Shown here in pieces: positions 2,377 through 53,898 of a stretch of 64,000 bases of DNA (position 1 is the stretch's first letter; each line of letters starts with the position of its first letter). The stretch comes from an uncultured virus (IMG/VR IMGVR_UViG_3300014969_000015) (taxonomy: Duplodnaviria > Heunggongvirae > Uroviricota > Caudoviricetes): the IMG/VR virus record IMGVR_UViG_3300014969_000015; one strand, given 5' to 3'. Position numbers and translations under genes: made by a program. The notes under the pieces are model-generated. The model saw only the letters and a program-made list of their open reading frames with translations, was not told where the DNA came from and searched no databases.

Positions 2377-3033
2377 GCCTTCGATTCTAGCACCCTAAAA
2401 AGACGTGGAATTACTGAAGAGGTCCCAAACCCCATAGGAGGGGCTCTTTTCGCGTTCTCCTCCCTTCCAGGTCGCTGCGAGAGGGAGGATCGCGAACAGC
2501 TGCGCGAAAGACTTACGGTCTGTAGGCTGTTCCTGCTGTACTCCCCCTACTTACAAAGGACCTAGAAAAAGGACTCTATGGCGCCGCGCGCATAATGGCG
2601 CCTAGTACTCTAGGAGGGTGCTAGGAACAGCTGATCAGGGGGAACAGAGGTGACGGCTGAATTGTGTTTCTAAGTTATTTTGATAAGTTGCGCATGTTCA
2701 GCTGCGCTGAGGGTGTCTGGGCGTACCCCCAGTTTTAGGGGGTCGGCGCTACCGTTAGACAGTTCTTACCATCGGCCCTTCTTCCGTTAGGGCGTTCTAA
2801 TTATTCGCCGCGTGGCTGCAGCCCCCAAGTGTGAAATTCCCTCAGTGTGCGGCTTAGTCCGCCCTCGGTGGGCAGATCCTCCTACTTTTGGGCCGTCGCT
2901 TTACATGTTCTGTTAGGCTGAGGGGCGTGTCCGGCCTTGAGCTATTGGTACGCCGTGCCGTCACGCGGTGGCTGGAGACGTCTGGACGGTCACGGCTCCC
3001 CGCCACGCATCGAGCTCGCGCTGCCCATTCGTC

Positions 3034-3963
3034 ATGAAGGAGAATTTCTTGAAGCGCTCCAAAACCAAGTACGGCAAGAAGGCGACCGAGAAAGTCGCGC
3101 GCACGATGCACGAGTTCAAGCGTGGGAAGCTCAGGAGCGGGGGAGGGGGCAAGGTGACCTCCCGAGCGCAGGCGATCGCGATTGGGCTCTCTCAGGCCCG
3201 GCGAGCTGGTTACAAGGCTCCGCCGCGAGGGCACGCGACGGTGAGCCTCGACGTGCGCACGCGAGAGTACCTTCGCAACATGCGACCGGGTACCGAGATC
3301 GATGCGCGAGGACTCGCGCGGGCGCTAGGCCGGGTCGATCCTCTTGAGGCCGACTACGCCCTAGAGCGCGCGGAGAAGGCGGGGCTTGCCGTCTCCCGGG
3401 ATGGGCGTTGGTTTGGTCCGGCAGGTGGACAGCTGGGGCATGCGAAAAAGTCGGCCAAGCAGATCGAGAGCGAGATCGCAGAGGCGTTGGAGCAATCTGC
3501 GGTATCAGAACCCTCAACGATTACGTTGAGAGATCGCTACAGCGGTAATCCTGTCTTGTTGACCGTCCGTGATGGACGCATTGTCAGCGTGATGGGATCT
3601 GATCCATGGCGTTACATGGGAATGTCGCTTGAAGAGGCCAAGCATTACGCCCGTCACGGAGGACGGGGGCGCGAAAAGAAGACAAGCCCCGCGCACGCGG
3701 TCCGAAAGGCGCGCGCTCCTCGTGTGGCGCTCTATCGTATTCAGCTCACGCCTGACGAGCTGCGTGCCCTTGAGTACGCGCGCGGTCGATACGCGTGGCC
3801 TGATGTGCTTTTGGCATATGCTGCCGATGATGGGTCAATCGCTCTCACGGAGAGCGAGATGTGGCAGTGGGTAGATGACGTGGACAGTGATGACTCTCCA
3901 TTTTCGCTGGCGTCTCCGGCATTCGCCGCGAAGCTTCAGCGCTTTTATGATTCACGTGTCTGA
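3034..3963 (+). CDS. DUF6496-like N-terminal domain protein with internal shared tag
   Basis: KVARTMHEFKRGKLRSG...KVTSRAQAIAIGLSQAR resembles DUF6496; contains GHAKKSAKQIESEIAEAL. Confidence 0.75.
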   Translation: MKENFLKRSKTKYGKKATEKVARTMHEFKRGKLRSGGGGKVTSRAQAIAIGLSQARRAGYKAPPRGHATVSLDVRTREYLRNMRPGTEIDARGLARALGRVDPLEADYALERAEKAGLAVSRDGRWFGPAGGQLGHAKKSAKQIESEIAEALEQSAVSEPSTITLRDRYSGNPVLLTVRDGRIVSVMGSDPWRYMGMSLEEAKHYARHGGRGREKKTSPAHAVRKARAPRVALYRIQLTPDELRALEYARGRYAWPDVLLAYAADDGSIALTESEMWQWVDDVDSDDSPFSLASPAFAAKLQRFYDSRV

Positions 3964-4166
3964 AATGGAGTCGGCTAGGCTGGTCATCCTTGATCATAGT
4001 TGTAAGAGCTGCTCGCGGGTCAGTGGCTGTCGGCCCGGGTCCCGGGTCTGCTCCCATTGCGGCCACCCGCCCGAGGACTTTGCTGACGAGCAGTCGATGG
4101 TCGAGTAGGCGAGGTTCGAAACAACGCTAGTAATCTCGTTTCGAGACCTGCTAAAATCGTGGCAAC

Positions 4167-4673
4167 ATGCGTGCTACTCGCAAGAAACCGACGCGCCCGA
4201 GTTATGACACGAGCACCGGCGAGGGTCAGAAACGTCTGATGCAAGAAAGTGTCGGTCTCGAATATGTTCAGCCTCGCCGCCTCGAAGCAGCGCTTGGTGA
4301 TTACGGTGCTGACCCTCTCGGGCCCGACGCGTATGGGGTGTTTCGTTGGCGGATGGTTCCATCAGGCGATGTCGTCGACAAGACCGAGCACGATCGCCGT
4401 CTGACGCGGGGTAGCGAAGCCAAACGGCATCACGCGGCAAAAAAGTCGACAGTTGAATTGGATCGCGACATCGCCGAAGTTCTGGCGAAAGATTATCGCG
4501 TCTCAGTGCGTGTGGAAGGCGCGCTCAAGCCGGTCTATGTTTCCCCTTGGATGACACGCGCGCAAGCTGAACATGCAGCAAGAAATCATAAGGCCATGAT
4601 CCGAGATCGTGGTTGGACGTCAGTTGTCGAGATCGAGGACAAGAGCGGTGCTGTAACGAGACTTCCGCGATAA
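4167..4673 (+). CDS. Hypothetical protein with internal shared tag
   Basis: HHAAKKSTVELDRDIAEVL; TGCTAAAAT lies 9 nt upstream of the ATG. Confidence 0.75.
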   Translation: MRATRKKPTRPSYDTSTGEGQKRLMQESVGLEYVQPRRLEAALGDYGADPLGPDAYGVFRWRMVPSGDVVDKTEHDRRLTRGSEAKRHHAAKKSTVELDRDIAEVLAKDYRVSVRVEGALKPVYVSPWMTRAQAEHAARNHKAMIRDRGWTSVVEIEDKSGAVTRLPR

Positions 4674-4697
4674 AAACTCCGCGATAAAAACGACGAC

Positions 4698-5075
4698 GTC
4701 ACGGAGGACGGGGGGGGCGCGAAAAGAAGACGAGTCCCGCGCATACGCTCCGAAAGGAGCGCACTCCTCGTGCGATGCTATTCAGTTCACGACTGACGAG
4801 CTGCGTTCCCTTGTTTGCAGCATCCATTTCCGTAGGCCGTCCAAGGCGGGATCAGTGTGGGCGTCCGGCAGCTCGGCGCAAAGCGCGGTTCGAGGATCAT
4901 GCCTCTCTCGCGCTCCGCGGCGCTCAGGAGCGCCCCGGCGCCCCGGCGCGGCGGAGGCGCGCCATGAAGGGCTCCTTGCCCGTGTCAATCGCGCTCACGG
5001 AGAGTGAGATGTGGCAGTGGATAGATGACGCGCTTTTATGATTCACGTATCTGAAAGTTGGCTAGGGCGGTCTCT
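4698..5075 (+). pseudogene. Degraded, interrupted duplicate of 3655-3990 (3' end of the DUF6496-like gene)
   Basis: Shared blocks gtcacggaggacggggg..gcgaaaagaagac, tcaatcgc.ctcacggagag.gagatgtggcagtgg and gcttttatgattcacgt.tctgaaa, with indels. Confidence 0.75.
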
Positions 5076-5959
5076 GTAGTCTCGGCCGCATCCTCGACCA
5101 TCCAGGGCTCCCATAGGCCCTCGGGTGTCCAGCGCGTGATAAAACGCCTAGCGTCAACGGGTATGGAGCCGATCAAACCCGCAGAGAATGGGCTGCCTAG
5201 CGGATTGTTTCCGACATACGTCACGTCAACAGCAAGATTCATCCCCATCTGAAGGGTTTCAAAGTTGATATAGAGGTCAAAGGCCGTCGGGGCAAACATT
5301 GCACCGGGGACTCCTCCCGCTTGTGCGAATTGCGATCGACTGCCGATTATTAGATCCTCGACTATCCAGTCTTCTGGATTTCCTCCAATGAGCAGCCTGT
5401 GAGGGCGAACCGTATGGCTTTGAGGGCGTAACGTAATTCTTGCCGTCTCTCCTGGTAAAATGTTCATGTTACTTGATAACGAGAGGACGGTGCGATCACG
5501 CTCCAGGAACCCCTTGGAAGAAGCCCTCTGGGGAATCTGCTCGAAGCCGATCTTGAGCACACTAAGATTTCGGACTTCGTCGATTGCGAAGAGCGCCTCA
5601 TGGCCCCCTCGCGGATCCGCGCCCTGCCTCCAGATGAAATTGCATACAACGGGGGCGGCGGAAGCGCTTTTGATTTCCGAAGCAATTCGACGAACAGATG
5701 CGTGATTGAACGGGTAGTTATCCGGTGCCCAGATGCCGCGCGGGGTCATGTCATCAAGGCACGAGATACCTACCGTGTTCCAGTAACTCGGCACTTCCTT
5801 CTCGAAGAAGGCATACATCCTGCCGTCGATCTGAACGAGGAGGATCGTAGCCGTTTCCCACGGTCTTTCCTGGATGCTTATCTCCCGTACTCCCTCCAGT
5901 GTATGCAGTCCGGCGCAGTCTTTCAGCACCTTCGGGCGCCAGGAGTCGAGGCCGCTCAT
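5036..5959 (-). CDS. Hypothetical protein with C-terminal beta-rich domain
   Basis: ATG 5959 overlaps the upstream stop; C-terminal ITLRPQ..RPHRLLIGG..DWIVEDLIIGSRSQF looks like a beta-sandwich. Confidence 0.65.
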   Translation of the reverse strand: MSGLDSWRPKVLKDCAGLHTLEGVREISIQERPWETATILLVQIDGRMYAFFEKEVPSYWNTVGISCLDDMTPRGIWAPDNYPFNHASVRRIASEIKSASAAPVVCNFIWRQGADPRGGHEALFAIDEVRNLSVLKIGFEQIPQRASSKGFLERDRTVLSLSSNMNILPGETARITLRPQSHTVRPHRLLIGGNPEDWIVEDLIIGSRSQFAQAGGVPGAMFAPTAFDLYINFETLQMGMNLAVDVTYVGNNPLGSPFSAGLIGSIPVDARRFITRWTPEGLWEPWMVEDAAETTETALANFQIRES

Positions 5960-6309
5960 GAAGATCGCGAGCCTTCCCTTGAAATGAAAGTGCGCAGCTT
6001 CCACTTTTTGGGAGGCACTTGCCGGAGGGCATCTTCGACGCTTGTGTGCTGAGAATCTCGAGAAGGTCCCAGCTCGTCGAAGAAGCTGACCTGCCAACGA
6101 CCCACAGTTTTTGTTGAGGGGTGAACGATCGCCGACTCATCGTGACGGGTCCGAGATGAAAATTCCGCCCCGCGTAGGGGTCCTACGACCTTCCAATCGC
6201 AGCTCTTGATCCCGAACCCAAGTGTTCGGCAGACGACGCGAAGAGGCGACTTCCGGCTCTCTAGGGCCTCTGCAATTTCTTGATCGAGTTGTGCTCTACG
6301 CTTGCTCAT
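5956..6309 (-). CDS. Hypothetical protein with N-terminal shared tag
   Basis: MSKRRAQLDQEIAEAL; ATGA overlaps at both ends. Confidence 0.75.
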   Translation of the reverse strand: MSKRRAQLDQEIAEALESRKSPLRVVCRTLGFGIKSCDWKVVGPLRGAEFSSRTRHDESAIVHPSTKTVGRWQVSFFDELGPSRDSQHTSVEDALRQVPPKKWKLRTFISREGSRSS

Positions 6310-7004
6310 AGTTTTTCTCCGAAGCGATAGCCCCGAACCCACGTCGCGACGTCGTCGTGCCCGAGTGTGCTCGTCATACCGATATGATCCACGAGACTTG
6401 GCACATGCACGTAACTGGGGCGCCCTAGCTCAAGCATCGAGGCTCCAACAACCGCGTCGACTTGCTGGTTCATTCGGTGCTTGGCGAGGTGCTTAACGAA
6501 GCGGCGGTGCTGCATGAGGTCTTTAGCTGCGGAGCGCGGGATACAGAGTGCGAGGGCTCCACAGTAGTCCCAGCCCAATCGACACTCGTTCCAGCCGTCT
6601 ACCGATCCTGGAGGCACCATGTTGGTGGCGACGTAGGGCGATAGGAAGCCGGTGCGGAGCTTTTGTCGTGCGGCAGCTGTGGCTCGCAGTGTATGTGCCG
6701 CGCCGGGTCCCCAGATCGCGTCGTCCTGCACGATGAGGAGCCAGGAAGCCGTGGTCCGTGTTAGAAGGTGCTGGAGAGCATGCCTCCAATTGACGAAGCA
6801 GCCGCGTGGCGTGGCATGATCGATGGTGGTGGTTCTTGCGTCCTTGGGCCTTGAAACCTGGTCCCAGGTGCCGGGCTCGGCGAACATGTGCACCCGCTCA
6901 TTGAAGCCGGCTTGGCGCAGGCTCGAGAGCGCGCGGTGAAGCGTAGGTGCGCGTCGCGGTGCCGTGGTCATCGCGATCGCGAGGGTGCCCGCGTCGTTTT
7001 TCAT
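6306..7004 (-). CDS. Glycosyltransferase, GT-A fold
   Basis: LAIAMTTAPR start, WLLIVQDDA (DxD-like) and PSLVDHIG..STLGH. Confidence 0.7.
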   Translation of the reverse strand: MKNDAGTLAIAMTTAPRRAPTLHRALSSLRQAGFNERVHMFAEPGTWDQVSRPKDARTTTIDHATPRGCFVNWRHALQHLLTRTTASWLLIVQDDAIWGPGAAHTLRATAAARQKLRTGFLSPYVATNMVPPGSVDGWNECRLGWDYCGALALCIPRSAAKDLMQHRRFVKHLAKHRMNQQVDAVVGASMLELGRPSYVHVPSLVDHIGMTSTLGHDDVATWVRGYRFGEKL

Positions 7005-7038: not shown

Positions 7039-7917
7039 GTGGTGGCACTGCAGATACAACTGGAAGACCTTCGAGGACCCGAGTGGCGAGCCCTCTTCGT
7101 TGGCGATCGTCCCCGCTTCGCGACCGCGACATCCGTCCGTCTCCTGGATGCGCATACGCTTGTTTGTGGTTCCCTTCTTGCTCGTAAGATTTATCTGATC
7201 CGCTTCGATCTAGCGTATGGCCGATATACCGTGATCGACGGTAGGGGCACCGTCTACAAGGACCGCTCTACGGAGACGGATCTTTGCGACACCGATGGGC
7301 AGGGCGGTGTACTCACCAGTAATTGTGAGGGCGGAAACATGAGCCTCTATCGGGTCTCCGGGGACAAGATCCACTACGAGCGCGATCTGTCCGCGGATCT
7401 TCCTGGAAACTACTGTCATGGTGCCCGGTTCTGTGGAGGGGGTGTGGTCGTGGCCACGGCTCTTCGAGAGCCGCGAGGCGCGCATTTCTACGAGGCTTCC
7501 TCGATGAGGAAGCTGCTCTACGTGAAGACTGAGAAGCTTCCCAAGGACATCTGTTTCTTGCCAGGCAAGCGCGGGGTCCTTGTCACGACCGATGGGGCTC
7601 CGCTGTCTGCGACCTCAGGGACGAGGAATGTCTCAGAGCTCCAGCTCATCGAGTATGACCTCGTGGGCGGGACCAGCACGGTTGTGGATCGGCAGATGTG
7701 CGAGGCACGCCAGCTTGATTCTGCGGCTTTCTATGAGGGACGGCTTTACGTCGTTGACAGCTACGGAGGCCGTGTCCTGGTAGTGGATGCGCGCACGTTA
7801 CGGCAGGTTGATCAGATTGATGGTTATGACTTTCCACACGGTGTGGATGCCAGGTACGGGATACTGGCAGTTTCCTGTTACGGAACGAACTCGATCCACG
7901 TGCGCCCGATCCGTTGA
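7039..7917 (+). CDS. Beta-propeller-like hypothetical protein
   Basis: 292 aa with blade-like repeats (RLYVVDSYGGRVLVVD, FPHGVD, LAVSCYGTNSIHV). Confidence 0.6.
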   Translation: MVALQIQLEDLRGPEWRALFVGDRPRFATATSVRLLDAHTLVCGSLLARKIYLIRFDLAYGRYTVIDGRGTVYKDRSTETDLCDTDGQGGVLTSNCEGGNMSLYRVSGDKIHYERDLSADLPGNYCHGARFCGGGVVVATALREPRGAHFYEASSMRKLLYVKTEKLPKDICFLPGKRGVLVTTDGAPLSATSGTRNVSELQLIEYDLVGGTSTVVDRQMCEARQLDSAAFYEGRLYVVDSYGGRVLVVDARTLRQVDQIDGYDFPHGVDARYGILAVSCYGTNSIHVRPIR

Positions 7918-7966: not shown

Positions 7967-10455
7967 GTCCCGTACGTCAACCGCGCGGGCAAGCTCTAGC
8001 ACCTTCAACTGTCTCTCGTCCCGAACGTTAGGTGCTCGGGCAAGCTCTATCACTACTCCAAGATGTCCGGTCCCGTCCCGAACGTTAGATGCTCGGGCAA
8101 GCTCTAACACCGTCGGATCGATGGTGGTCCCTCTTGTCCCGAACGTCAACCGCTCGGGCAAACTCTATCATCCGCCTAAGCGTCCGCGTGTCGGTTGTCC
8201 CGAGCGTTAGGTGCTCGGGCAAGCTCTATTATGAAGTGACCACTCATACGTCCCGAGCGTTAGGTGCTCGGGCAAGCTCTATCACGGACAGTCATCCGTC
8301 AGGACGTTCGATGATCGTCCCGAACGTTAGGTGCTCGGGCAAGCTCTATCACATGCGCAACTCCAATGTAGCAATTCGAGTTGGCGACGTCCCGAACGTT
8401 AGGTGCTCGGGCAAGCTCTATCACCACGAGGCCGTTAGCCGCTCACCTTCAAGGACTGTGTGTCCCGAGCGTTAGGTGCTCGGGCAAGCTCTATCACCGT
8501 TTGGAAACGAGGCGTCGCATCGGCGCGGGTGGATTCATCCCGAACGTTAGGTGCTCGGGCAAGCTCTATCACTTGGCCGCCTGCCGTATCGGTTCGGGTC
8601 CCGGCGTCGTCCCGAACGTTAGGTGCTCGGGCAAACTCTATCACCCGATGTTATCACAAGGTGTTAGGCTTGGGCCTACTGGTCCCGTCCCGAACGTTAG
8701 GTGCTCGGGCAAGCTCTATTTCACCGGCGAGTCTGGTGGCCAGCGCATCGAGGACGCCGTCGTCCTGAACGTTAGATGCTCGGGCAAGCTCTATCACACG
8801 CCAGTGGCTCGGTGATCCAAAGCCCCGGCATGAGCGTCCCGAACGTTAGATGCTCGGGCAAGCTCTATCACGAGTGCTAGCATTGACCGCTGGAGTCCCG
8901 AACGTTAGGTGCTCGGGCAAGCTCTATCACGGCGAGCCATTGCGCGACCGTGAGCGTACACATTTCGTCCCGTCCCGAACGTTAGATGCTCGGGCAAGCT
9001 CTATCACGAGGATGCACTCCAGTCCCGAGCGTCAGCTGCTCGGGCAAGCTCTATCATGCGCGGTTTCGCCAGCTGGAAAGCGCTCACTGTCCCGAGCGTC
9101 AGCTGCTCGGGCAAGCTCTATCATGCTCCGCAGTGCGGACAGGTGTGGTTCTTCACTCGCGTCCCGTGCGTCCCGTGCGTCAGGTGCTTGGGCAAGCTCT
9201 ATCATCCAGACCGACGAAGGTCCCGAGCTTCGGGTGCTCGGGCAAGCTCTATCATGCCGTGGGGCCTTCCGTTCGTCCCGAGCGTCAGGTGCTCGGGCAA
9301 GCTCTACCATTCACATCGACGCGCTCGATACAGGTCCCGAGCGTCAGGTGCTCGGGCAAGCTCTATCACACAGGTCGCACTTGCCCTTCGGGGCATCAAG
9401 CCAGCTGTCCCGAACGTTAGATGCTCGGGCAAGCTCTATCACGGTCGATGTTCGGGATCACGGTGCGCGTAAACAATCGTCCCGAACGTTAGATGCTCGG
9501 GCAAGCTCTATCACCTCGACAACGCGGGCCCCGGACCAGTCGCCTACTTCGGCCCCGAACGTTAGATGCTCGGGGCAAGCTCTATCACGTCGCGGCGGGA
9601 CTGCTCAGCCAGAGCGACGCCATGTCCCGAACGTTAGATGCTCGGGCAAGCTCTATCACGGCCGTGAGAACGGCGTGCGCAACGAGGTCTGCCTCGTCCC
9701 GAACGTTAGGTGCTCGGGCAAGCTCTATCACCCGGCGGCCGCTCCCAAGCTCATAGCCGAGATCCGCGGTCCCGAACGTTAGATGCTCGGGCAAGCTCTA
9801 TCACATCAAAATCTTGGCCGATGAGGTTCCGGCTTTCGCGTCCCGAACGTTAGATGCTCGGGCAAGCTCTATCACGCGCTGCAGATGCAGGCTGGTACCG
9901 TCCGCGACGCTGTCCCGAACGTTAGATGCTCGGGCAAGCTCTATCACGTCTACATTTCCGTCCAACCATCTAAGCGAGCACTTGTCCCGAACGTTAGGTG
10001 CTCGGGCAAGCTCTATCACTCAAGCCCCGCCTTGATCGCCGCTCCGCGAAGGATGGTCCTGAACGTTAGGTGCTCGGGCAAGCTCTATCATCACCTGACC
10101 TACCAAGTCGGGAAGCCCCGGCATCACGTCCCGAACGTTAGGTGCTCGGGCAAGCTCTATCACACGGTTGTCAGGGGCGTTCGCCAAAGCCATTGTGTTG
10201 TCCCGAACGTTAGATGCTCGGGCAAGCTCTATCACGGAGTGGATCCGAATGTCCAACCTGCCCACCCTACTGTCCCGAACGTTAGATGCTCGGGCAAGCT
10301 CTATCACATCCGATTTCGGAGAGCGGGCCGCCAACGATGGTGCCCGTGTCCCGAACGTTAGATGCTCGGGCAAGCTCTATCACCGGGCACTTACGATCGC
10401 GAGCGACGACCTGTGACGCGTCCCGAACGTTAGATGCTCGGGCAAGCTCTATCAC
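7967..10455 (-). CRISPR. CRISPR array, 37 repeats and 36 spacers; 36-nt repeat GTGATAGAGCTTGCCCGAGCA(T/C)CTAACGTTCGGGAC in transcribed orientation
   Basis: The + strand shows GTCCCGAACGTTAG(A/G)TGCTCGGGCAAGCTCTATCAC repeated with unique spacers. Repeats degenerate at the left end; leader and promoter lie at the right end. Confidence 0.97.
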
Positions 10456-10599
10456 GTCAAGCAACTATTCAGTTGTCACTTAGCCGCCTTACAGTACTGA
10501 TTTCGAGCGGCTATGTCAAAGACCTTTTTATCAATGGCAGGGTGATCTGCGCTCTATACCAATTAGAAGAATTTTCACATATTTGCCTGACGCAAGAGG
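10456..10599 (-). promoter_or_regulatory. CRISPR leader with sigma70 promoter
   Basis: AT-richer non-coding stretch; minus-strand TTGACA (10519-10514), N17, TACTGT (10496-10491) points into the array. Confidence 0.8.
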
Positions 10600-11135
10600 T
10601 CACCCTTCGATGAGGAGCACTGGACCGCTCGCACTGCACGCGTTCATCGCCGTGAGCAGCGCCCCGACAGCGTCCCGGATGCCCTTCTGGGGTCCGGTCG
10701 CGGCGTACTCGTCGAGGACCGCCAGATAATTCGACAGGCACGACAGACACGACAGATCCAGCTTTGGATCGTCGAGGACTCGCAGCGCGACATCGACGGC
10801 GCCCACGATAACCCTGCTTGTGGTCGGAATCGGTCCGCCCTCGACCGTCGATCCGCGGTGCGCCTCCGCCCACATGTCGAGGATGACGAGCTGCGCTCCC
10901 GTGAGCCCGCGCCACGTGAACGTCCTGCGCCATGTGAACGTCCTCGCGCTTGTCGACAGCGCAAAGAGCCCGCGATCTTGCCCGACCAGGTCGGGAACGT
11001 CAGCACCCCGCGCCCGGAGCGGACGATCGCGCGCACGCAGCCAAGCACGGTCGCGAGCGGCAATTCCGAGGCGTCGATCAGCTCGGCGGTAGAAGCGCTC
11101 TCGTCCCACGAGTCGTCGTCCTGCCAGTCCTTCAA
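10600..11135 (-). pseudogene. Probably one frameshifted hypothetical gene upstream of the leader
   Basis: The N-terminus looks protein-like in frame 10644..11135 (coupled to the SLT stop) and the C-terminus in frame 10600..11148. The switch is near 10960, next to a 15-nt duplication (RTFTW x2). Confidence 0.45.
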
Positions 11136-11671
11136 GAGGCCCCTCCAAGTGCTCTGTGGATCATCCGCGCCCGTGCCTCGAACAGCCTTACCGCATCACA
11201 GCCCGGACTTCCCGGATGTGCACCGCAGTACGCTCGAAAACCCCGTCCACCGGCGTACGCCCACAGTGCGCAGCGTTGAATGACCTCGTCGTTGACGTCA
11301 TGTCGCCAATGATCCGCTGCGTGGCATACGTCGATCCATGTACGAAGATGCTCGGCTCCCGCGAGGTAGCCTCCCAAGAGGGTCAGCTCTTCGGGGGTAC
11401 AGCGCTCGTGAGGAATCGGGGTCATGACGCCGCAACTGACGCGGCCTCGGCTCTCGAGGGTGCGTAGGCCGACGACGAAGCGCGACTCGTGGTAGGCCAC
11501 CGAGAGGAGCACGGCTGGATCGATTCCGTATTTTTCACCTGCAACGCGAGCGGCTCCGAGGTGTTGGGCCGCGGCAGCCTGCGTGAGATACTGCGGGGCG
11601 GTCGCTTGGAGGGCTTGTACCTCTGCTGGGGTGGTTTGGAGCGTGAGCCAGAGAGCGAGGATCCAATTCAT
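11132..11671 (-). CDS. Lytic transglycosylase (SLT-like) with signal peptide
   Basis: KYGIDPAVLLSVAYHESRF catalytic ES motif, GVM, and ALWAYAGG. Confidence 0.75.
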   Translation of the reverse strand: MNWILALWLTLQTTPAEVQALQATAPQYLTQAAAAQHLGAARVAGEKYGIDPAVLLSVAYHESRFVVGLRTLESRGRVSCGVMTPIPHERCTPEELTLLGGYLAGAEHLRTWIDVCHAADHWRHDVNDEVIQRCALWAYAGGRGFRAYCGAHPGSPGCDAVRLFEARARMIHRALGGAS

Positions 11672-12662
11672 GCCCTGACATAGACCAAACGGTCAGATAT
11701 TCCCATACAAAGTTGGTGTATTCGTGTGGCTATCACACCAAAAACGGTGTGCGGGCTCACGAAGCATTGGCAACATTGGCAGCCTCAGAACATCCGGTTG
11801 TTAAATGCTTGACATATCGTACACTCACAGCGTGATGGTCTGCGCAGTGCATGTATCTCGCGTCTATGCAGATCTCGTCTGTCGGCTCGATGTGCAGTCA
11901 TGTCAGCTCTGTAGGCTTGACATGACGCGCATCCACAGCGGGCTCTGACACCGCGCTGTCTGTGATCTTCTCTGGAGTTGATCCATGTGGGCCATGTCGT
12001 CCACACTTGACCAAGATCTGCATCATGCGGTGTGTGGTCGATGACTAAGCGCATTGCGACTTGTGGAGTACGCGGGTTAATTCAAGCACTTCAGGTATGT
12101 GGTTCCTGACTAGCGCTCGTTTGCTCGAGGGGCCCACCCATCCTCCTGAAAGTAGAAAAAGGGCAGCGTGTTCCATTCGGCGGCCGTCAGGGTGACGAGC
12201 TTGGTGACATCGTCGCGCATGGCGTATGCGTACATGACGTCGGTGACGGGCTGTCCTTTCACGACGTCCCGGAAAAGCCCCATGGGCATGAGGTAGCGTA
12301 GGAGCGTTCTTGGATCGGTCCAGATCTTCATACGCAGCCGGAGACCGGTCTGCGAAGAGGAAGGGCTCTCTGGTTGGGCTGTCTCCGACCCTTCGCGGGG
12401 CTCTATATTTGGCAGGGCATCCATCGCCTCTTCGTAGGCGCGCGCTGCTTCATAGGACGTTTTGGGATAGAGCGCCGCTGCTTCTTCGATGGATGCTTCG
12501 GGGGTCTCGGTCGTTGCTCCGCTCATTGCATTACCTTTCGCGCATAGTCGTAGGATTCATGGCCTATATCAAGCGCTGCCGTCCGCTCCGTGTTGAGCTG
12601 ACCGATCTTATTTTGCGGGCTCTTCTATTCGTTGTCGACCACGCCGCATCGGGAGTGAGGCT

Positions 12663-13058
12663 TCAGCGGTGGATCTTCTTGTGCTGTGGCAAGTGTCGCG
12701 GATATTTTGGCAGCTTGATCTTGTTCGCGCGTAACATCACCGCGAAGGAAGGAAACAATTCAGGACCTTCTGTGTCTTCGACCTCCTCGCGTGTGACCTG
12801 GTGCTGCAGGGCGAGAAGCCGTACTCCGATTGCCTGAAAACCCAGGACACGAATCCAGCCCTGGCACGGTACGCTCTCGCGCTCTTCCGCGGGTAGGGCA
12901 TTCGCTTTGTGGCAGAGCATGATGTTCAGGCCGTCACCCTGGCAGCTCTGCCAGATGTCGACGAAGTGCTGGGGGTCCCAGTAGCCGCGCGGTGCGTCGA
13001 CTCTCCAGGGACAGTTGGAACAGGGTCGCCTGACTTTTGTGCCGACTACTGGATTCAT
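12663..13058 (-). CDS. DUF6283-like Cys-rich protein
   Basis: PCSNCPWRVDAP.G.W...CH...CQGW. Confidence 0.65.
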   Translation of the reverse strand: MNPVVGTKVRRPCSNCPWRVDAPRGYWDPQHFVDIWQSCQGDGLNIMLCHKANALPAEERESVPCQGWIRVLGFQAIGVRLLALQHQVTREEVEDTEGPELFPSFAVMLRANKIKLPKYPRHLPQHKKIHR

Positions 13059-13091
13059 GTGCGGTGCAACACTAGAGCGCAGAGCGCGCGG

Positions 13092-13454
13092 TTACGGTTC
13101 AATTTCAGAACAGCGACACTGAACATGTGTCACTAGCACACCATCTTCATTGAAGAAGATGCTTTCATCGCAGTCACCGATGTTTCCACAATGACTGACG
13201 GCGCCGCAATTCAGATGGCAGATCGCATCACCGCTCCGCTTGTTGAGAGAGCACCATCCCGGGCCACCGTTGTTCATGTCATCTGATGTGCAGCATGTCG
13301 TCACGGCACAAAAGGGATCTGAATGGGGCTTGATTTTAACGATCTGGGCTTCATCCAAGATGTAGGTGCTGGGATCTAGGCCCGCATCCGGACCAGAGCT
13401 GATGTTCGTTGTACAAGCGCAGGTGAGTAGGGCAATAAGGCAGAATTTGGACAT
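13092..13454 (-). CDS. Cys-rich putative lipoprotein
   Basis: MSKFCLIALLTCAC signal/lipobox-like start and many Cys. Confidence 0.5.
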   Translation of the reverse strand: MSKFCLIALLTCACTTNISSGPDAGLDPSTYILDEAQIVKIKPHSDPFCAVTTCCTSDDMNNGGPGWCSLNKRSGDAICHLNCGAVSHCGNIGDCDESIFFNEDGVLVTHVQCRCSEIEP

Positions 13455-14247
13455 TTACACTTTCGGGGTTGGTTACTGGACGGCTGCGAATGGATGTTGT
13501 TGGTCGCGGTGGTTGATCACGCGTCGTATGAAGGCGGCAACGGCTGCCGGGGTGATCTCCAAGCCGCCGTGTGGAGGAGCAATGTCGTATTCAGGCATCT
13601 CCGTGACTTTCCAATAGCCGGCTCTAATACGTTTTCCAGTCGGCAGGAGCACGTGCACTGTGGGTTGACCGCAGGATAAGTGAACCTTCCAGTAGTACTT
13701 TGTGCCATCTACGACGATGGGGCGCCCTCGACGTTTCGATGACTTGCGGCTCACATTGTCCCCTGATGGCAGCTGAATGCTTCCGTGCTTTATCTGGTTA
13801 GCGTCCAGTATCACGGTCTTCTTTGAACCGTCCAGCTCACGTTGTGAGCAACAGACTGCATATGCCCTTGCTCCGCGTTCGGCATATTCAAGCTCATCTT
13901 GTTCCATCTTCTCGTGTGGCGCTTCTTTCACAGGCTCGCCTTGACTATCAATCAGAGGCCAGTAGAGGATCTGCCTCGTAGGCTATGCAATCCCCTTCCT
14001 CGCAGGAGCTGCAGCTCGTCGAGCCCGGGTATTTAGCGTCGCGGCCATGCTCTTCGGGGGAATGTCCGCAGGTGCAGGGGTCCGAGCCTCCTATGACGGT
14101 TCCGCCGTTGGTGTTTTCTGTCGTCGGGACACTTCCCGGCATCCCAAATGTTTTCTTTGCAGGCGTCTTCTTGGCGCGCGTTTTCCTGGGCTTACTTGAT
14201 GTTTTCTTCGTGGGGGCCTTCTTGGTGTTTTTTGCCATGAGGTTCCT

Positions 14248-20859: not shown

Positions 20860-22316
20860 GTCAACACGAGAAAAAATTGCACCAGCCGCGGTTAGCGAGT
20901 TGGACGTCGGAGGAGTTGAAGGCGCATCTTGCCAACCTCGTGGACGCGTTGGCTCTTGAGAAGGCTCCCGTCTCTCCGCTCGATATCGCTCTCGCGTTGC
21001 TTGGGGGCGAGCTGGAGGCCTTTTTGTTGTTTGGACGGATGGGGCACCTTGATCCGCCCCGTCCTGACGGTGTGCCGATCGCGATCCTTCGCTGCCTGAG
21101 CGCGGATCCAAAGATCGATGAGATGATTCGTCGGACTGCCCAGAAGTGGCTCTCCGCGCAGGAGCAGCGTTCGTGAAAAAGCGACGGAAAAAGCGTCCAA
21201 AGATGTTTCAGGGCGCCGCTGTCGTGCGGGGGCTGGCTATGAACAGCCACAAGCTTGATAAACTCCTCAAGAAGAAGGCTCTTGAGCAGTTCGATGCGTT
21301 GCGGGAGACCTTTCTCGTTGTCGAAGATGGCGCCTTGGGTGGTGACAGTGTCACGGTTCGCTGTTTTTTGGATCCGGTCGCGGCGCTCCGTTGTGCTCGT
21401 GCACTATCCAATGGAAACATCGATCACCGCGTGCTGCGCGTGAGCGGTCAAACGCTCGTGATTGCAACCGATAACAGGTTGTATCCACGGATTGGCTGAG
21501 GAGCTATGATCCAGATTAATGGCGTTGGCTGGTTCGTCGGCGGCCTTATCATCCATTTTTGTGGAGCGCTGGCGCTTTTTTGCTACCTCCGGGGTTGGCG
21601 TCTCGAGAATCGGCAGCGCGCGGCGTGGTGGCAGAGATACGAGGCGGAAGCACAGTCGCGCCATGGCGCACTTATGCGGGCGCTCCATTGTGATCGCACG
21701 GAGGCGCAGTCGCCGAACGATCCGGGACCCTGTGCCGAGGCCTGCCACGATGAGGGCCCACCGAACGGGTCAGCGGACGATGACCCGACCGCACTGAAGG
21801 GGCTCGCGCGTAAACTTTACGAGGTCTACGATCGACCGTGCGAGTCGAACGGGGACTGGAACCATGTCAAGGAGTACGCCGATCTCGAGGACAAGATCCG
21901 AGCAATGGTAGGGGCTGAACCTGCGTGCTGCCGACGACCATGAAAGCACGGCTGCTCGTGGCGGTTGACTCCGCGCGGTCGATTCGACAAAAATCATAAA
22001 AGGAAAGGTCTCTCATGCATGTAAAGAACTGGATCTTCAGCGTTAGCTATGTCCCCAAGGGCACACTCGGTTACTTTCGCCGAGCTGTTGTGGGTCCAGC
22101 AAGCGTTTCAACCGTCGAGGCTGCTCTTCAGCTGGTCAACGTACCTGAGGAGGTGCAAGCTGAGATTCGCTTGAATCCGATGGTGCGTCAATTCATCGAG
22201 GGGGCTCTTTCATCGGAGGTGTCCGGACACTGTGCTACGTCGAGCAGGTTCATGGTCGCGTCGCAGCAGACGGAGGTGTGGCTCGTCTGCATAGGTCCTG
22301 TGCACGAGGTGCTTCG

Positions 22317-23105
22317 TTGAGAGATGCGCTGTCGCTGGAAGAGTCCTTCCGGGTGTTGGAAGATCGTTGTGACGGCAATGAGGCGGCTGAACAAGCGCTT
22401 GCTCGCGTCCGAACCTTGCTTCGTGAAGGTGCGAACCGCCATCAGTGCTCTAGCGTGTCTACCGATTCGACGATCCGTAGGATCTCGACGGGAATTTTGG
22501 CTTTTGACCGCGTGCTTGGTGGTGGTGGTCTCGTGGAGGGGGCCACCGTTTTATTTGCGGCCCGGTCTGATAGGGCAACTACCGAAGCAGCAACAGCGTG
22601 GACGCTGCAGATACTTGATGGACTAGGGGAGCACTGCCTTTACGTTACGGGCGAAGAGACCCGGGAGCAAGTTACGGCTACGGCTAAACGCTTAGGTGTG
22701 CTGTCAAATCGAATCTATGTGTTCAAGGAGACACGGCTCGGTGAGATCCTGGAACATATGCGATCGTCTAATGCTCGGGTAGTTGTGATCGACTCTATTC
22801 AGAGCCTGGCTTGTGAGGGGGTCCGCGGCCAAGCAGGCTCGATGGATCAACTCAAAGAGTGCACGGAGCGCTTGGTGCAACACGCGAAGATGCTGAAGAT
22901 ATCGCTCTGGCTCATTGGGTACGTCGCAGGGGACGGCTCGATCCTGGGTCCGGTGTCCTTTGAACATGTCGTTGACGTCGTACTTGAGTTGGTACAGGAC
23001 TCAAGGGGTCATGGACAGGTTATTCGCTCCCGCAAAAACAGGTTCGGACCAAACAACGAGGCAGCTCGTTTCAGGAAGGTCATTGAGGAGTTCGGTGATG
23101 TCTGA
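22317..23105 (+). CDS. RadA/Sms-like ATPase domain, degenerate Walker A, no Lon-like C-terminal domain
   Basis: ISTGI..FDRVLGGG, LYVTGEE, VVVIDSIQ, EHVVDVVL and KNRFG are present. Confidence 0.8.
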   Translation: MRDALSLEESFRVLEDRCDGNEAAEQALARVRTLLREGANRHQCSSVSTDSTIRRISTGILAFDRVLGGGGLVEGATVLFAARSDRATTEAATAWTLQILDGLGEHCLYVTGEETREQVTATAKRLGVLSNRIYVFKETRLGEILEHMRSSNARVVVIDSIQSLACEGVRGQAGSMDQLKECTERLVQHAKMLKISLWLIGYVAGDGSILGPVSFEHVVDVVLELVQDSRGHGQVIRSRKNRFGPNNEAARFRKVIEEFGDV

Positions 23106-32900: not shown

Positions 32901-33923
32901 TCAGGGGGCTTTACCGGGCCTGCCGGGCCTGCCATGAGGCAGTCCATATTGTTTCACCTTGCCGAAAAACGTGCGCATGGGCATCGACAGAAGCAGGGCC
33001 GCTCGAGTCTGGTTTCCCCCGGTGGCCTCAAGGGCCTCCCGGATCCGCGTGATCTCTAACTCGCGCAACTCATCGGCCAGGGGGCGGAACTGGCGATCGA
33101 CTAGAGATCCCGCACCCATTGGGTCGACCTCCGGGGCGTGCTGCAGCGTGACCGTGCGCACGGATAGCACTTCACTAACGTCGCGTGGAAGTAGGACGGT
33201 GCTCCCCAGTGTCGTGGCAAAATATTGCATCACGTTCTTGAGCTCTCGGACGTTTCCGGGCCAAGCGTGGGCTCGCAGGACGAGCATGGCCTCCGGCGAA
33301 ATGGTCATCGGGCCGCCCCCTATCAGGCGCCGTGCCTCTTCGAGGAACGTGCTGGCCAAGATCGAGATCTCGGAAGGGCGTTGACGCAGTGGGGGAATCT
33401 CCAGAAGCGCCCCGGAGAGTCGAAAGAACAGATCGCTCCGGAAACGGCCTGCCGATACCTCGGCCCGCAGGTCTCGATTGGTCGCGGCGAGGATGCGGAC
33501 GTCGACCGCGCGCTCCTGTACATCCCCCACACGGGTGAGCCTTCCTGATTCCAGGACCCTCAACAGCTTAGCCTGGGTGATTGGACTGAGTTCTCCGATC
33601 TCATCCAGGAACAGGGTGGATCCAGTCGCTGCCTCAATCAGCCCTGCTTTTGCGGTTACAGCCCCAGAGAACGCCCCGCGCTCGTGCCCGAACAGTTCGC
33701 TCTCTGCGAGATGCTCGTGTAGCGCAGCGCAGTTGAGCGGGATCATTGGAAGCCGCACGCGGGGCGAACCTGCATGGAGCGCGGCAGCTACGAGTTCTTT
33801 TCCGCAGCCTGTTTCCCCGATAATCAGGACTGGTAGGTCCGCTGGGGCCAGTTTGCGGATCTGCGCGTAGATCCGCACCATGACGGGATCTTCGACGATA
33901 GGTGAGAGTATCCTTTCCTTCAC
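32901..33923 (-). CDS. Sigma54-dependent enhancer-binding protein (AAA+ plus Fis HTH) with no sensory domain
   Basis: GETGCGKE, ESELFGHERGAFSGA, LFLDEIGE, AATNRDL, WPGNVREL, ALEATGGNQTRAA. Confidence 0.95.
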   Translation of the reverse strand: MKERILSPIVEDPVMVRIYAQIRKLAPADLPVLIIGETGCGKELVAAALHAGSPRVRLPMIPLNCAALHEHLAESELFGHERGAFSGAVTAKAGLIEAATGSTLFLDEIGELSPITQAKLLRVLESGRLTRVGDVQERAVDVRILAATNRDLRAEVSAGRFRSDLFFRLSGALLEIPPLRQRPSEISILASTFLEEARRLIGGGPMTISPEAMLVLRAHAWPGNVRELKNVMQYFATTLGSTVLLPRDVSEVLSVRTVTLQHAPEVDPMGAGSLVDRQFRPLADELRELEITRIREALEATGGNQTRAALLLSMPMRTFFGKVKQYGLPHGRPGRPGKAP

Positions 33924-36167: not shown

Positions 36168-36641
36168 ATGCCGAAGACGAGACGAGAACTCGACCGCGAG
36201 ATTAACAAAGTGCTTAGTCCGAGATTGGGTGTGGCGCGCGAGGCAAACGCAGGCGACCCCATCCGCTCAACCCCCAGGGATTCTCCTGCAGACTGGGTCT
36301 GGGCCTATCACGTCACTCCAAACGAATTCCTACCGTCGATCGCCAAGGACGGGCTGAAACCAGAGCGCCATCCTCATGTAAGGGGCGCTCCGGTAATCTT
36401 CGTTGAGCCTGACCTTGAAGGCGTGCTGCCCTATCACATCCGAAGTAAGACCTCCGTCCTCCGGTTTCGGACCCCTGGATTCGGAGATACGGAAGATGGG
36501 GAAACGGTACTCTACTCAGGAAGTCAACGCAGGCTGTCGCCCCCTGACCCTCCGTTCGTCGGTCGCCCTGGAAAACATGGCGTGATTCCCCCGCAGCGCC
36601 TTCAAATACTTCGTGACAACGCCTTCGTCTGGCTAACCTGA
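36168..36641 (+). CDS. Putative ADP-ribosyltransferase-fold protein with N-terminal shared tag
   Basis: MPKTRRELDREINKVL, then YHVT...LPSIAKDGLKP...IFV and IPPQRL, an ART/Tpt1-like pattern. Confidence 0.55.
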   Translation: MPKTRRELDREINKVLSPRLGVAREANAGDPIRSTPRDSPADWVWAYHVTPNEFLPSIAKDGLKPERHPHVRGAPVIFVEPDLEGVLPYHIRSKTSVLRFRTPGFGDTEDGETVLYSGSQRRLSPPDPPFVGRPGKHGVIPPQRLQILRDNAFVWLT

Positions 36642-40082: not shown

Positions 40083-40556
40083 TCAAGGATGGGTTTCATG
40101 AGAACCAAGCTTCATGCCGAGCTGGAGCCCCCTCTCGGCGAGCCGCTCTTTGATTTCTTGAAGTGTCCTATTGCCTAAATTTTTGATCTTTCGCATCTCG
40201 GACTCGGTCTTCTGGACTAGATCGACGATGTTCTTGACGCGCGCGTTTTGCAAGCAGTACATGGCGCGGTTGCTAAGTTTGAGGTCGTCGACCGCACCTT
40301 GCAGTTGCCTTGTGAGCACATGGGCCTTGATTGTCTCAAAGGCGTCGTTGCAAGACATTCCATTCTTCATCTCGTGCGCCAGTGTCATCCGGACGGCTTC
40401 CGCGAGAGCCTCAATCGCGACCTCGGGCTGAGTGTGTCCTGAGATGATGTCAAGTTCTTTACAGAACCCGATCCACTGGTTGGGGGTCTCAGGTTCTTGG
40501 AAAATTTCGAAGGTCAGCTTCATGTTTATCCGGTCGTCATCCAAGCGTGACGTCAA
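40083..40556 (-). CDS. HicB-like N-terminal domain fused to RNA polymerase alpha C-terminal domain
   Basis: VDDLKLSNRAMYCLQNA.VKNIVDLVQKTESEMRKIKNLGNRTLQEIKERLAERGLQLGM closely matches the RpoA CTD. Confidence 0.85.
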   Translation of the reverse strand: MTSRLDDDRINMKLTFEIFQEPETPNQWIGFCKELDIISGHTQPEVAIEALAEAVRMTLAHEMKNGMSCNDAFETIKAHVLTRQLQGAVDDLKLSNRAMYCLQNARVKNIVDLVQKTESEMRKIKNLGNRTLQEIKERLAERGLQLGMKLGSHETHP

Positions 40557-45404: not shown

Positions 45405-45529
45405 GTTCTAGTTTCCTTTTCGTTATGGCGGAAGCTCACGTTTTCTTCCTGTTGACGCATCCCCGCGAGATTCGTCTTACTCTCGAAGGTCCAGAATGAA
45501 ACAGCCACTACTTTGGCTAATTAAAGCCG

Positions 45530-45603
45530 TACGCGTCGCGGGATTCGAACCCGCACTTGAAGGCTTTTAAGGCCTTTGTCTCTAACCGTTGGACTAGACG
45601 CGC
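45530..45603 (-). tRNA. tRNA-Leu(UAA), short variable loop, no encoded CCA
   Basis: Acceptor GCGCGTC/GACGCGT, anticodon arm AAGGC-CTTAAAA-GCCTT, T arm GCGGG-TTCGAAT-CCCGC, discriminator A. Confidence 0.88.
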
Positions 45604-50336: not shown

Positions 50337-50699
50337 TCATTCGGACAAAGCCTCCGGCCATGACGCTTTGACGATCGGCCACAGCTCGGCGAGTTTCTTG
50401 CCAGCGGCCTGGCCGATCGCACGTCCGCCCGCGCCGCTCGGCGGTCGGTAGTAGACCTCGGAAAGCTTCTTCCAGAACGCACGAATCACGCCGCCGTTCG
50501 ACGACTCGAACGTGTAGCTTCCGTCGGGATTGTTCTTGATCGTGTCGAGCAGTGCCGTCTGGGTGCGCCGGATGATGCTGCCCAGGCCACGGGGCAGGCG
50601 TGTACGTAGGATAACGGCGGGAGGCGCCGTGTGTGACTTCGCTGCGACGAGCGCCTCCTCGATCTCACGATCGAGCTGCCATGAAGGCTTCTTGGTCAC
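50337..50699 (-). CDS. Hypothetical protein with N-terminal shared tag
   Basis: MTKKPSWQLDREIEEAL. Confidence 0.7.
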   Translation of the reverse strand: MTKKPSWQLDREIEEALVAAKSHTAPPAVILRTRLPRGLGSIIRRTQTALLDTIKNNPDGSYTFESSNGGVIRAFWKKLSEVYYRPPSGAGGRAIGQAAGKKLAELWPIVKASWPEALSE

Positions 50700-51194
50700 A
50701 GCTACTCCTTGCCCGCAATGCCGTGTGACATCACCGCTGCTGCCTCATCTGCTGCCGGCTGCGGGTCACGTGGCTCAATTGATCGAGGCGGCGATCCGCT
50801 TGAGCGTCGGCACACTCGCCACGCTGCTGCCTCATCTGCTGCCGGCTGCGGGTCACGCGTCGGCAGGTCCAGCTCAAACCAGACCGGCGCGGTATTGCGG
50901 TGGATGCGACGACGGCGGCTCATGTGGCCCTCGGCAGATTTGGCTGCGAGGGCAGCCGCGCTGTTGGTGTGCTGGGATGGCATCTACGCGGCACTTTAGC
51001 AGACTGGGGGCATAACTCGCAATTATACCCCGTTAGAAATTTCTGGTGCAAGTTGTTGATACTTAGTGACAACAGGGGTCGTGTTGTCACAGATAAGTTC
51101 GAGGCTTGAAACGGTGCCATGCGAAGGGCCGTCGCCGTCGGTGGAGCCGTGACGACGGCCGTCGGTGGAGCTTGGCCGTGGTAGGATCAAGGCC

Positions 51195-51824
51195 ATGCCC
51201 AAATCAAGGATCGCTCGCGAGGTTGACGAGATTCTCGCCAACGGATCCGAGGCCGAGGCAGGATCCGAGACGATCGATGAGCTGAGGCCAAGACCCAAGA
51301 AGCCGAAATCGCTCACCAACGCAATCATCGAGAAGGCCGTCATGGCCGCTCGGCTATACTTTGGTTCCCTGGGCGGAAAACTTAGGCCGCGCGACGAGAA
51401 GAAGCTCCACGATCGGATGATTCGAGCCATCGAGATGGTCGTCAGGAAATCGAATGGGCTCCTCGACTACGGTAACGCCTACAGGCAAATTCACGACGAG
51501 GCAATACGACGAGGCCGCATCCTGGCACTGCCAGGGGATCCACATCTAAGGACGCGAGCTCGCCGGGCGAAACGGGGGGGGGTGCGGCGAAATGTGCCGA
51601 GGACGAATCGGTGCTTCAGGGTATTAGGGATAACTAGGTTCCAAGGTCCTGTGCTGGAGGTGCTAGGATCCTCAGGATGCTTCGCTACGCAAGTTTCCAG
51701 AACTGGACCATTGGCCAACTCCTCATTGGACTTGGCCGCAGAGCGGAACCTATACGTGGATCTATTCCATCAGCATGGATCACAGACGCCAGTGAATCCG
51801 AGATCCGAGACGCTGCCTCCCTGA
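51195..51824 (+). CDS. Hypothetical protein with N-terminal shared tag
   Basis: MPKSRIAREVDEIL; TGGTAGGAT lies 7 nt upstream. Confidence 0.65.
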   Translation: MPKSRIAREVDEILANGSEAEAGSETIDELRPRPKKPKSLTNAIIEKAVMAARLYFGSLGGKLRPRDEKKLHDRMIRAIEMVVRKSNGLLDYGNAYRQIHDEAIRRGRILALPGDPHLRTRARRAKRGGVRRNVPRTNRCFRVLGITRFQGPVLEVLGSSGCFATQVSRTGPLANSSLDLAAERNLYVDLFHQHGSQTPVNPRSETLPP

Positions 51825-52243: not shown

Positions 52244-53056
52244 CTACTCTTGTACTTCGAGAGCGCCGTCTCGTGTCCAAGCTAACTCTCCGCGCCTAAC
52301 AGCGGCATTAATGTGCGGCATCCGGTACCCAAGTTTGCTCAGAAAGTAGGGAGTGGCGTGGTAGGGCCCCGCCTGGGCTACGACGGCCTGCAGCGGTGTC
52401 GGTCCGACTCGTGCCAGCTTCGGCTGCTGTAGTCCGGGCTTGCGGCCCGAGCCTGGACGGGGGGCGCCTCGGCGCTCGCCCTTTGCCATGGACTTCGAGC
52501 GTAACGATGCCCCAATAGCGGAATTTAGCGCGGCACGATCGAACCAAGCCTGATGCTCGAAGGCTATTTCGCCGTCGGCGGCGATGACCTGCACTACATC
52601 TCCTACAAGACGATGTGTGAAACCTGGAGCGGCTGGTTGTGCCGTGGATCTAATCTTGCCTTGGACATCCACATAATATGCCTCGGGCGCAGATCTCTTA
52701 CTATGGGGCACCGCGTAAGAGTGCGGTGTCTTCTGCTTGCGCGCATGAGAGTGCTTGTACTTTGGGTCAAGCGCCTCGTCGATCTCGCGCCTGATCTGCG
52801 CATGAGACTTCTTGGGCGGCGCGCTGACTGGCCTTGTCCACTCCACGTCGTCGGGGTGCCCAACGAAGGTATAGTCACCTGGGCCGAGTCTCATCGGACG
52901 CATCCGTAGGTCACGCCCTACAATTCCCTCATCGCTCCGACGCGTGGGTCCGTAAACGTAGACTTCTTCAAACTCGACCTTGTCGCCTGGGCCGCGACTC
53001 TGAATTAAATATCCGATCTTGGGCTGGTTGGGCTGGTTGCGCGCACTCTTTGCCAT
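52244..53056 (-). CDS. Hypothetical protein with internal shared tag
   Basis: PKKSHAQIRREIDEAL; TGGTAGAAT lies 9 nt upstream. Confidence 0.75.
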   Translation of the reverse strand: MAKSARNQPNQPKIGYLIQSRGPGDKVEFEEVYVYGPTRRSDEGIVGRDLRMRPMRLGPGDYTFVGHPDDVEWTRPVSAPPKKSHAQIRREIDEALDPKYKHSHARKQKTPHSYAVPHSKRSAPEAYYVDVQGKIRSTAQPAAPGFTHRLVGDVVQVIAADGEIAFEHQAWFDRAALNSAIGASLRSKSMAKGERRGAPRPGSGRKPGLQQPKLARVGPTPLQAVVAQAGPYHATPYFLSKLGYRMPHINAAVRRGELAWTRDGALEVQE

Positions 53057-53409
53057 GGCTCGAGGATTCTACCATCTCGCAGGGACCCTTGGTTACGAAA
53101 CGGCTAAGATGGCGCGGTTTCGTTACCTTGGTCTACCTGCTCGACGACGGTCTCTTCATCGACGAAGTCGTCGGGCGGGTGACCGCAGTGGGGGCAGACC
53201 CGGGCCGAGAGCCACTGGCCGGCGAGCAACGCGTCCATGGCGATTCCGGCGAACCGGGCCACCCGCAACGCGAGCGCCATACGACGACAAGACCTGGGAC
53301 CTTGCGCCTGTGCGGGAGCGCAGGGAAGACAACCGCGGTGGCGGTTCGAAGTGATCTCTGTGGCGGTCATCAATACCGTACATGGCCGGATGTGGGTAGG
53401 ATGGTTGCC

Positions 53410-53898
53410 ATGGCGCAGCTCCCGAAAAAGTCACCCGCCCAACTTGAGCGCGACATCCACGCCGCGCTCAAGCTCGAACCTCCGCGCCTAAAGCGCCTGG
53501 GATACGTCACGGGGCTTGCTGTCTATCTCGTATCGGGGGAGTACGTCCGTAACCACATCGATCCGGACTTTACCCAGGGCGGTAACGAGGGTGCGTATCC
53601 CGGCTACAACCCGCCAGGCGAAATTTGGATCGACGACGCAATGCACGTCCTCGATCGCATCGCCACCATCTTTCACGAGATCGTCGAGCGCAATCTCATG
53701 ATGTGCCAAGGCGTTGGTTACGACAAGGCACACGATACCGCACTCGAGCGCGAGATGAAGTTCCGCAAGGAGCTCATGCGTCAGCGCCCTACCTCGACGG
53801 ACCTTCGTCTCGTTACCAAGGCGCTCCGGCCGTATGCCCAGGAGGCGTTGCCCTCAGGCAAGAGGCCTGGCAGAGCGAGTCGAACCATCTCCGGATGA
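53410..53898 (+). CDS. Putative metal-binding (HE..H) protein with N-terminal shared tag
   Basis: PKKSPAQLERDIHAAL; EIWID...FHEIVERNLM...YDKAH. Confidence 0.7.
   Translation: MAQLPKKSPAQLERDIHAALKLEPPRLKRLGYVTGLAVYLVSGEYVRNHIDPDFTQGGNEGAYPGYNPPGEIWIDDAMHVLDRIATIFHEIVERNLMMCQGVGYDKAHDTALEREMKFRKELMRQRPTSTDLRLVTKALRPYAQEALPSGKRPGRASRTISG

Follow-up and report, generated by a model that had tools for sequence, protein, structure and literature searches.

The CRISPR array described here lies within a 64,000-nt stretch of an uncultured Caudoviricetes record (IMG/VR IMGVR_UViG_3300014969_000015; hereafter, the window), phage-like DNA of ~58–60% GC that encodes an integrase, a helicase/primase, an RNA ligase, and unknown phage families, and whose gene content suggests that the host of the element is a myxobacterium. 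Array parsing identified 37 repeats and 36 spacers at 7967–10455, limits slightly wider than the 8353–10419 of the original prediction, which had correctly recognized a real array. The repeats are 36 nt long, with one copy of 37 nt; 26 spacers measure 31–45 nt, and 10 are shortened to 14–25 nt. The 15 spacers nearest the leader are all 35–40 nt long and have near-perfect repeats, and the leader-proximal repeat (10420–10455, minus strand) was taken as the reference copy. Repeats at the trailer end (7967–8285) are worn, carrying as many as 7 changes, and the spacers there include five cut to 15–25 nt. The six repeats at 9022–9369 form a block in which the loop differs and most spacers are shortened. 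A putative leader at 10456–10600 has a GC content of 43% versus 60% in the array, and no sigma-70 consensus promoter was found within it. The array is flanked by a plus-strand ORF of 292 aa (7039–7917) that had no match in Pfam, PHROG, or PADLOC and is non-cas by these scans, and, upstream of the leader, by a minus-strand ORF of at most 182 aa (10600–11148) that matched no family and is not Cas12m.

Several features support the view, already held in the original prediction, that the array is transcribed from the minus strand. The repeat hairpin has a predicted folding energy of −11.3 kcal/mol on the minus strand versus −8.4 kcal/mol on the plus strand, and the 36 ungapped repeats vary at one stem pair, with G-U in 27 copies and G-C in the other 9 when read on the minus strand; on the plus strand the G-U would turn into an A-C mismatch. 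Because the repeats are worn at the left end, the AT-richer leader flanks the right end, and a related array in another virus record (L061) has the same orientation behind its cas gene, minus-strand transcription is the probable direction. On this strand, a 7-bp hairpin and then AC close the 3′ end of the repeat.

In pattern scans, repeats of this family also turned up in L002, a metagenome contig whose array is more worn than that of the window, and in L061, which had 18 matches. The L061 array begins directly behind the gene for a 631-aa protein that matches Cas12m structures (23vw, E = 8.5 × 10−61; 8hhl; 8pm4) and PADLOC Cas12u1 (E = 2 × 10−84); the L061 Cas12m has N in the motif that we take to hold the first RuvC position. 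Its repeat is the closest effector-linked one, with 26 of 36 letters identical to the window repeat. An alignment of the L061 Cas12m relatives was used to pull 44 viral Cas12m loci, in 32 of which an array was called, and sixteen repeats were then aligned, comprising three from the window, one from L002, and twelve from the viral Cas12m loci. They have a common six-pair stem in which 98.9% of cells are paired, and five of the six pairs have changed on both sides, a score that none of 500 shuffles reached. According to the available text of one study, Cas12m loci conserve a repeat of 36 nt that carries a hairpin and then AC at its 3′ end (PMC11013384); that of another gives the Cas12m scaffold as 36 nt (PMC10442227). 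The window array has this type V-M repeat feature, and its repeat is, by predicted fold, of Cas12m (type V-M) architecture.

A cas12m gene is absent beside the array. A Cas12m profile run against the six frames of the window gave a best E-value of 0.18, and no cas match was found among the longer of its 171 ORFs (32 scanned with Pfam, 20 with PADLOC); the same scans detected no adaptation genes, as in type V-M, and no cas10 or cas13 linked to the array. Because an adjacent effector is missing, we treat the array as one that would work in trans like a V-M guide array, and do not class it as a full V-M locus. In a genome collection the window repeat pattern gave 51 single-match loci and no array, and exact and half-degenerate repeat patterns had no match in viral contigs. 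Cas12m was not found in 138 Kofleriaceae genomes with the L061 protein as single query. It was matched in 3 of 401 Mycobacteriaceae genomes, where no array was detected beside it. Two of these three matches carry an internal stop (L208, L209; G465, G339).

We propose, and consider probable, that the array serves as a detached store of guides, and that the Cas12m (type V-M) effector which would use them is encoded by the same phage-like element. As the sequence suggests, the array would be transcribed from the leader along the minus strand; on the pattern of the published family, Cas12m would cut the pre-crRNA transcript within the repeats, the first 17–20 nt of each spacer would serve as the guide, and the effector would recognize a PAM in double-stranded DNA and remain bound there without cutting. 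Bound Cas12m would block transcription or replication of its targets, presumably rival mobile DNA or host genes, with guides drawn from either strand of the target genes. The available text of PMC11013384 describes Cas12m as processing its own pre-crRNA, binding DNA at T/C-rich PAMs, and cleaving neither DNA nor RNA targets, and reports that GoCas12m protects against phage with guides to the sense or the antisense strand, without RNA cleavage; the guide duplex is put at ~17 bp in the portion of PMC10442227 available. The original prediction had called for an RNA-targeting or silencing effector. Silencing, here by DNA binding, fits because the repeat is of the Cas12m family; RNA targeting is without support.

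The argument for RNA targeting had been that the spacers look coding on the plus strand and would therefore give guides antisense to mRNA. We called strands with three-periodic Markov codon models trained on genes of the window and related viruses, on Kofleriaceae genes, on both combined, and on Cas12m viral loci, which assigned 75, 83, 79, and 78% of held-out 36-mers to the correct strand, respectively. Among the 26 full-length spacers, these models called 12, 16, 15, and 13 antisense to mRNA (sign-flip P = 0.22, 0.067, 0.13, and 0.38 in the same order), so a bias against mRNA in the window array is unsupported. The estimated antisense share was 0.57–0.70, with intervals spanning 0.21–0.93. 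A uniformly antisense array was rejected under the window/viruses model (P = 0.0018) and the Cas12m-loci model (P = 0.0015) and was not rejected under the host (Kofleriaceae) model (P = 0.18); power at 26 spacers is limited, such that a true share of 0.65–0.8 is compatible with these results.

All nine peptides quoted in the original prediction, IKILADEVPAF and EWIRMSNLPTL among them, can indeed be read on the plus strand. A rule accepting any stop-free frame with GC3 ≥ 0.75 is passed by 16 of the 26 spacers on the plus strand versus 18 on the minus strand, so that the coding appearance does not separate the strands. The same rule passes 62% of non-coding-strand 36-mers from viral genes and 86% of those from host genes, which bears out the caveat, attached to the original prediction, that antisense frames in GC-rich DNA can look coding; such frames account for most of the coding impression. 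Selection added to it: the codon models scored six to eight of the nine quoted spacers as plus versus 5–10 of the 17 unquoted ones, several of which read better on the opposite strand, and the quoted list is thus a favorable selection. The kinase-like reading of spacer 9 did not hold up, with codon scores of −0.0 to 1.0 and another frame preferred. As part of the same probable explanation as the guide store, we attribute the apparent bias to the picking of good-looking GC-rich 36-mers together with, at most, a small excess such as a TT PAM would produce through codon composition. With no measurable orientation of the spacers against mRNA, the array offers nothing in favor of an RNA-targeting system.

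Coding-strand bias is known from type III and some type I arrays, and the available text of PMC8482600 puts it at 65% on average in type III arrays and at 88% in Moraxella III-B. This is the pattern that had been proposed for the window, whose repeat is not type III-like. Control arrays were chosen by their position beside cmr2 genes and oriented by repeat end; one duplicate (L227) and two arrays with ambiguous repeat ends (L269, L270) were dropped. In the same test, one of these arrays (L257) had 28–30 of 36 spacers antisense (P ≤ 2 × 10−5), which indicates that the test detects a strong bias at this sample size, whereas a bias in the window could not be demonstrated. In the remaining six control loci the bias was slight or absent, and the type III-linked control pooled to 174–189 of 323, from which the window did not separate (P = 0.43–0.85). 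L257 lies at 10763–13487 of G641:C367, from a Polyangiaceae genome, and its near-complete antisense bias is known type III behavior.

Pooled, the arrays related to that of the window showed no bias. From the 44 Cas12m loci we dropped 12 without a called array, 5 duplicates, 3 with ambiguous repeat ends, 1 with short spacers alone, and 1 that was AT-rich (L197), and pooled the remaining 22 viral loci with L002, giving 236 unique spacers. Of these, 111–114 were antisense, a share of 0.48–0.49 (interval for 0.49: 0.40–0.59); the window did not separate from this pool (P = 0.15–0.77), and the two arrays with the closest repeats had 8–10 of 23 antisense. Seven matches of related arrays to their own phage records were found, three in the sense and four in the antisense orientation, two of the seven overlapping on opposite strands of one stretch; one of the seven had TTG, and six lacked a TTN PAM. 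Natural phage Cas12m spacers thus appear about evenly split by strand, a by-product of this analysis that fits the published two-strand activity of Cas12m. A limited search found no published strand share for natural Cas12m spacers; the first Cas12m paper (Wu et al. 2022) and supplementary material, which lay outside that search, may hold strand data, and the available portion of bioRxiv 10.64898/2026.10.26.761838 contained nothing on strand in coding regions. The self-matches (L158, 9121–9193; L169, near 10908; L194, 1045; L186, 13229; L276; L281) were perfect in three loci, and one lay inside its own cas12m gene.

A PAM alone could produce a small strand lean. By codon composition, TT at positions −3/−2 predicts 57–59% antisense guides, approximately the lean seen in the window. 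In the related arrays, codon phase was fixed to the 5′ end of the guide (LR = 21.2 on 5 df, P = 7 × 10−4), which is what a 5′ PAM would give, and had no tie to the 3′ end (LR = 0.8); the repeat of one of these arrays (L181) is probably one letter short, shifting 14 spacers in the phase test. TT ranked 8 of 48 candidates for this signal. The window's own spacers had no phase signal, and TT ranked 22 of 48.

Searches of the spacers against viral, plasmid, and candidate host-family sequences returned partial matches, with neither a true protospacer nor a PAM for the window array in any set searched. No protospacer was found within the window itself, in 40 virus records, in 50,697 phage records (best E = 0.2), or in 72,556 plasmids (best E = 2). 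In 138 Kofleriaceae genomes 35 match at E ≤ 0.02, partial at best, and in 301 Polyangiaceae genomes 10 match at E ≤ 0.003, partially or on the repeat; one related Cas12m array, searched against the phage records, also had no match. The sole near-full database match of the array was that of spacer 10 (8573–8608, minus strand), 31 of 36 letters, beside an IS66 remnant in a Kofleriaceae genome (G061). Its five mismatches all fall within the PAM-proximal 20 nt, which makes it a non-working target. The match is silent in one plus frame (a chance of 0.016 for five random changes), that frame being an unconfirmed gene, and its E-value of 4.6 × 10−4 is for one genome when 138 were searched. The target region, which belongs to no family, occurs in 1 of the 138 Kofleriaceae genomes, and the match may be due to chance. 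Partial matches of spacers 12, 25, and 35, with 6–9 mismatches, were set aside as chance.

With no true protospacer found, there is room for a mild lean in the window array, and the alternative that survives best, though we think it unlikely, is that the same Cas12m array carries a real, moderate antisense excess (~65–80%) arising from the PAM of its clade, from borrowed acquisition machinery, or from selection for the strand that best blocks RNA polymerase. All four point estimates of the antisense share exceed 0.5, stop triplets are fewer on the plus strand of the spacers (15 versus 25 by raw count), the silent changes of spacer 10 fall in a plus frame, a TTG PAM would yield a share of 0.64–0.82, and one related array (L168) scored 12 of 15. 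Against this, none of the four tests reached significance, an opposite lean is seen in the two arrays whose repeats are most similar, the L168 score comes from a set of 25 single-array tests, and the doubts given above apply to the match of spacer 10. Moreover, dCas12a represses better when it targets the template strand, according to the available text of PMC8363830, so selection for silencing would not obviously yield the direction originally predicted. A genuine bias would reveal how selection shapes a non-cutting CRISPR system and could be a sign that a type V-M protein binds RNA. A related and quite improbable version is that the Cas12m sub-clade of this array keeps mainly antisense guides, through a strand-polar block opposite to that of dCas12a or through a grip on RNA; in that case the array would be a record of how selection acts on a silencing-only CRISPR.

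It is highly improbable that the guides serve an RNA-targeting effector, whether a type III or VI system of the host or phage or a Cas12m clade that binds RNA, with antisense guides alone being kept. Host-family genomes do carry type III genes (TIGR02577 in 27 of 201 Polyangiaceae), and under the host-trained model, with its 16 of 26 calls, full bias was not rejected. However, the repeat is of Cas12m type and differs in sequence and end from the repeats beside Polyangiaceae cmr2 genes, the genome collection holds its pattern as single matches without an array, the window ORFs scanned include no cas gene, a truly biased array was readily detected by the same test, and the Cas12m proteins tested so far bind DNA with a PAM and leave RNA uncleaved (PMC11013384, available text). 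Equally doubtful is the reading that the array is an orphan in decay, no longer used by any effector: 10 of the 36 spacers are shortened, the repeats are worn in blocks, the window has no effector, and the L002 array is worn still further, but the leader-proximal spacers are of full length between near-perfect repeats, the stem changes preserve pairing, and contigs of runs X1–X3 hold repeat-flanked letters absent from the window, which suggests further spacers in the same or related elements.

Set beside known type V-M CRISPR-Cas12m systems (MmCas12m2, 8hhl/8hio; GoCas12m, 8pm4; 23vw), the detached guide store proposed here is alike in its repeat length of 36 nt, in the hairpin and AC that close the repeat on its 3′ side, in its spacers of ~36 nt, and in the lack of adaptation genes among the ORFs scanned. 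It differs in having no adjoining effector and many shortened spacers. The type V-M locus of myxophage MV-1, as described in the available part of bioRxiv 10.64898/2026.09.14.751636, is likewise phage-borne and has a Cas12m-type array without cas1, cas2, cas4, or confident protospacers; in MV-1 the effector lies beside an eight-spacer array, whereas the window has 36 spacers, no adjoining effector, and a myxobacterial host that is suggested by gene content. Since that Cas12m locus has been published, a phage-borne Cas12m array is already known, and the window array is ordinary in this respect.

Elsewhere in the window, tRNA and Rfam scans returned one tRNA-Leu(TAA) at 45529–45603 and nothing else, and the gene products include a sigma-54 activator, an RNA polymerase alpha C-terminal domain protein, and a RadA/RecA-like ATPase (32901–33923, 40083–40556, and 22278–23105). 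No close viral relative of the element was found through its 716-aa protein, and a relative reached through the ORF at 11132–11671 had no array in the stretch examined. In L002, worn repeats run on for kilobases (2500–5050) and flank a 272-aa collagen-like ORF (3848–4666), placed as if the gene sat within an old array end. Repeat loop variants cluster in blocks, both in the window (7967–8002, 8136–8171, 9022–9369) and in L002 (116–4900); the variant at 8136 resembles the main repeat form of L002, and in contigs of runs X1 and X2 the 8136-type variant adjoins letters not present in the window, a possible sign of a second array or of arrays having recombined. Ten unrelated window ORFs (879–1247, 1942–2376, 2968–3963, 4167–4673, 5956–6342, 36168–36641, 50337–50699, 51165–51824, 52244–53056, and 52834–53898) have in common a short motif, mostly near the start, of basic residues followed by L/I-D/A/E-R-E/D-I-x-E-A/I-L. 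The motif also occurs in L002 (5037–7211); a common tag for targeting or packaging is one possibility, a repeated DNA element another.
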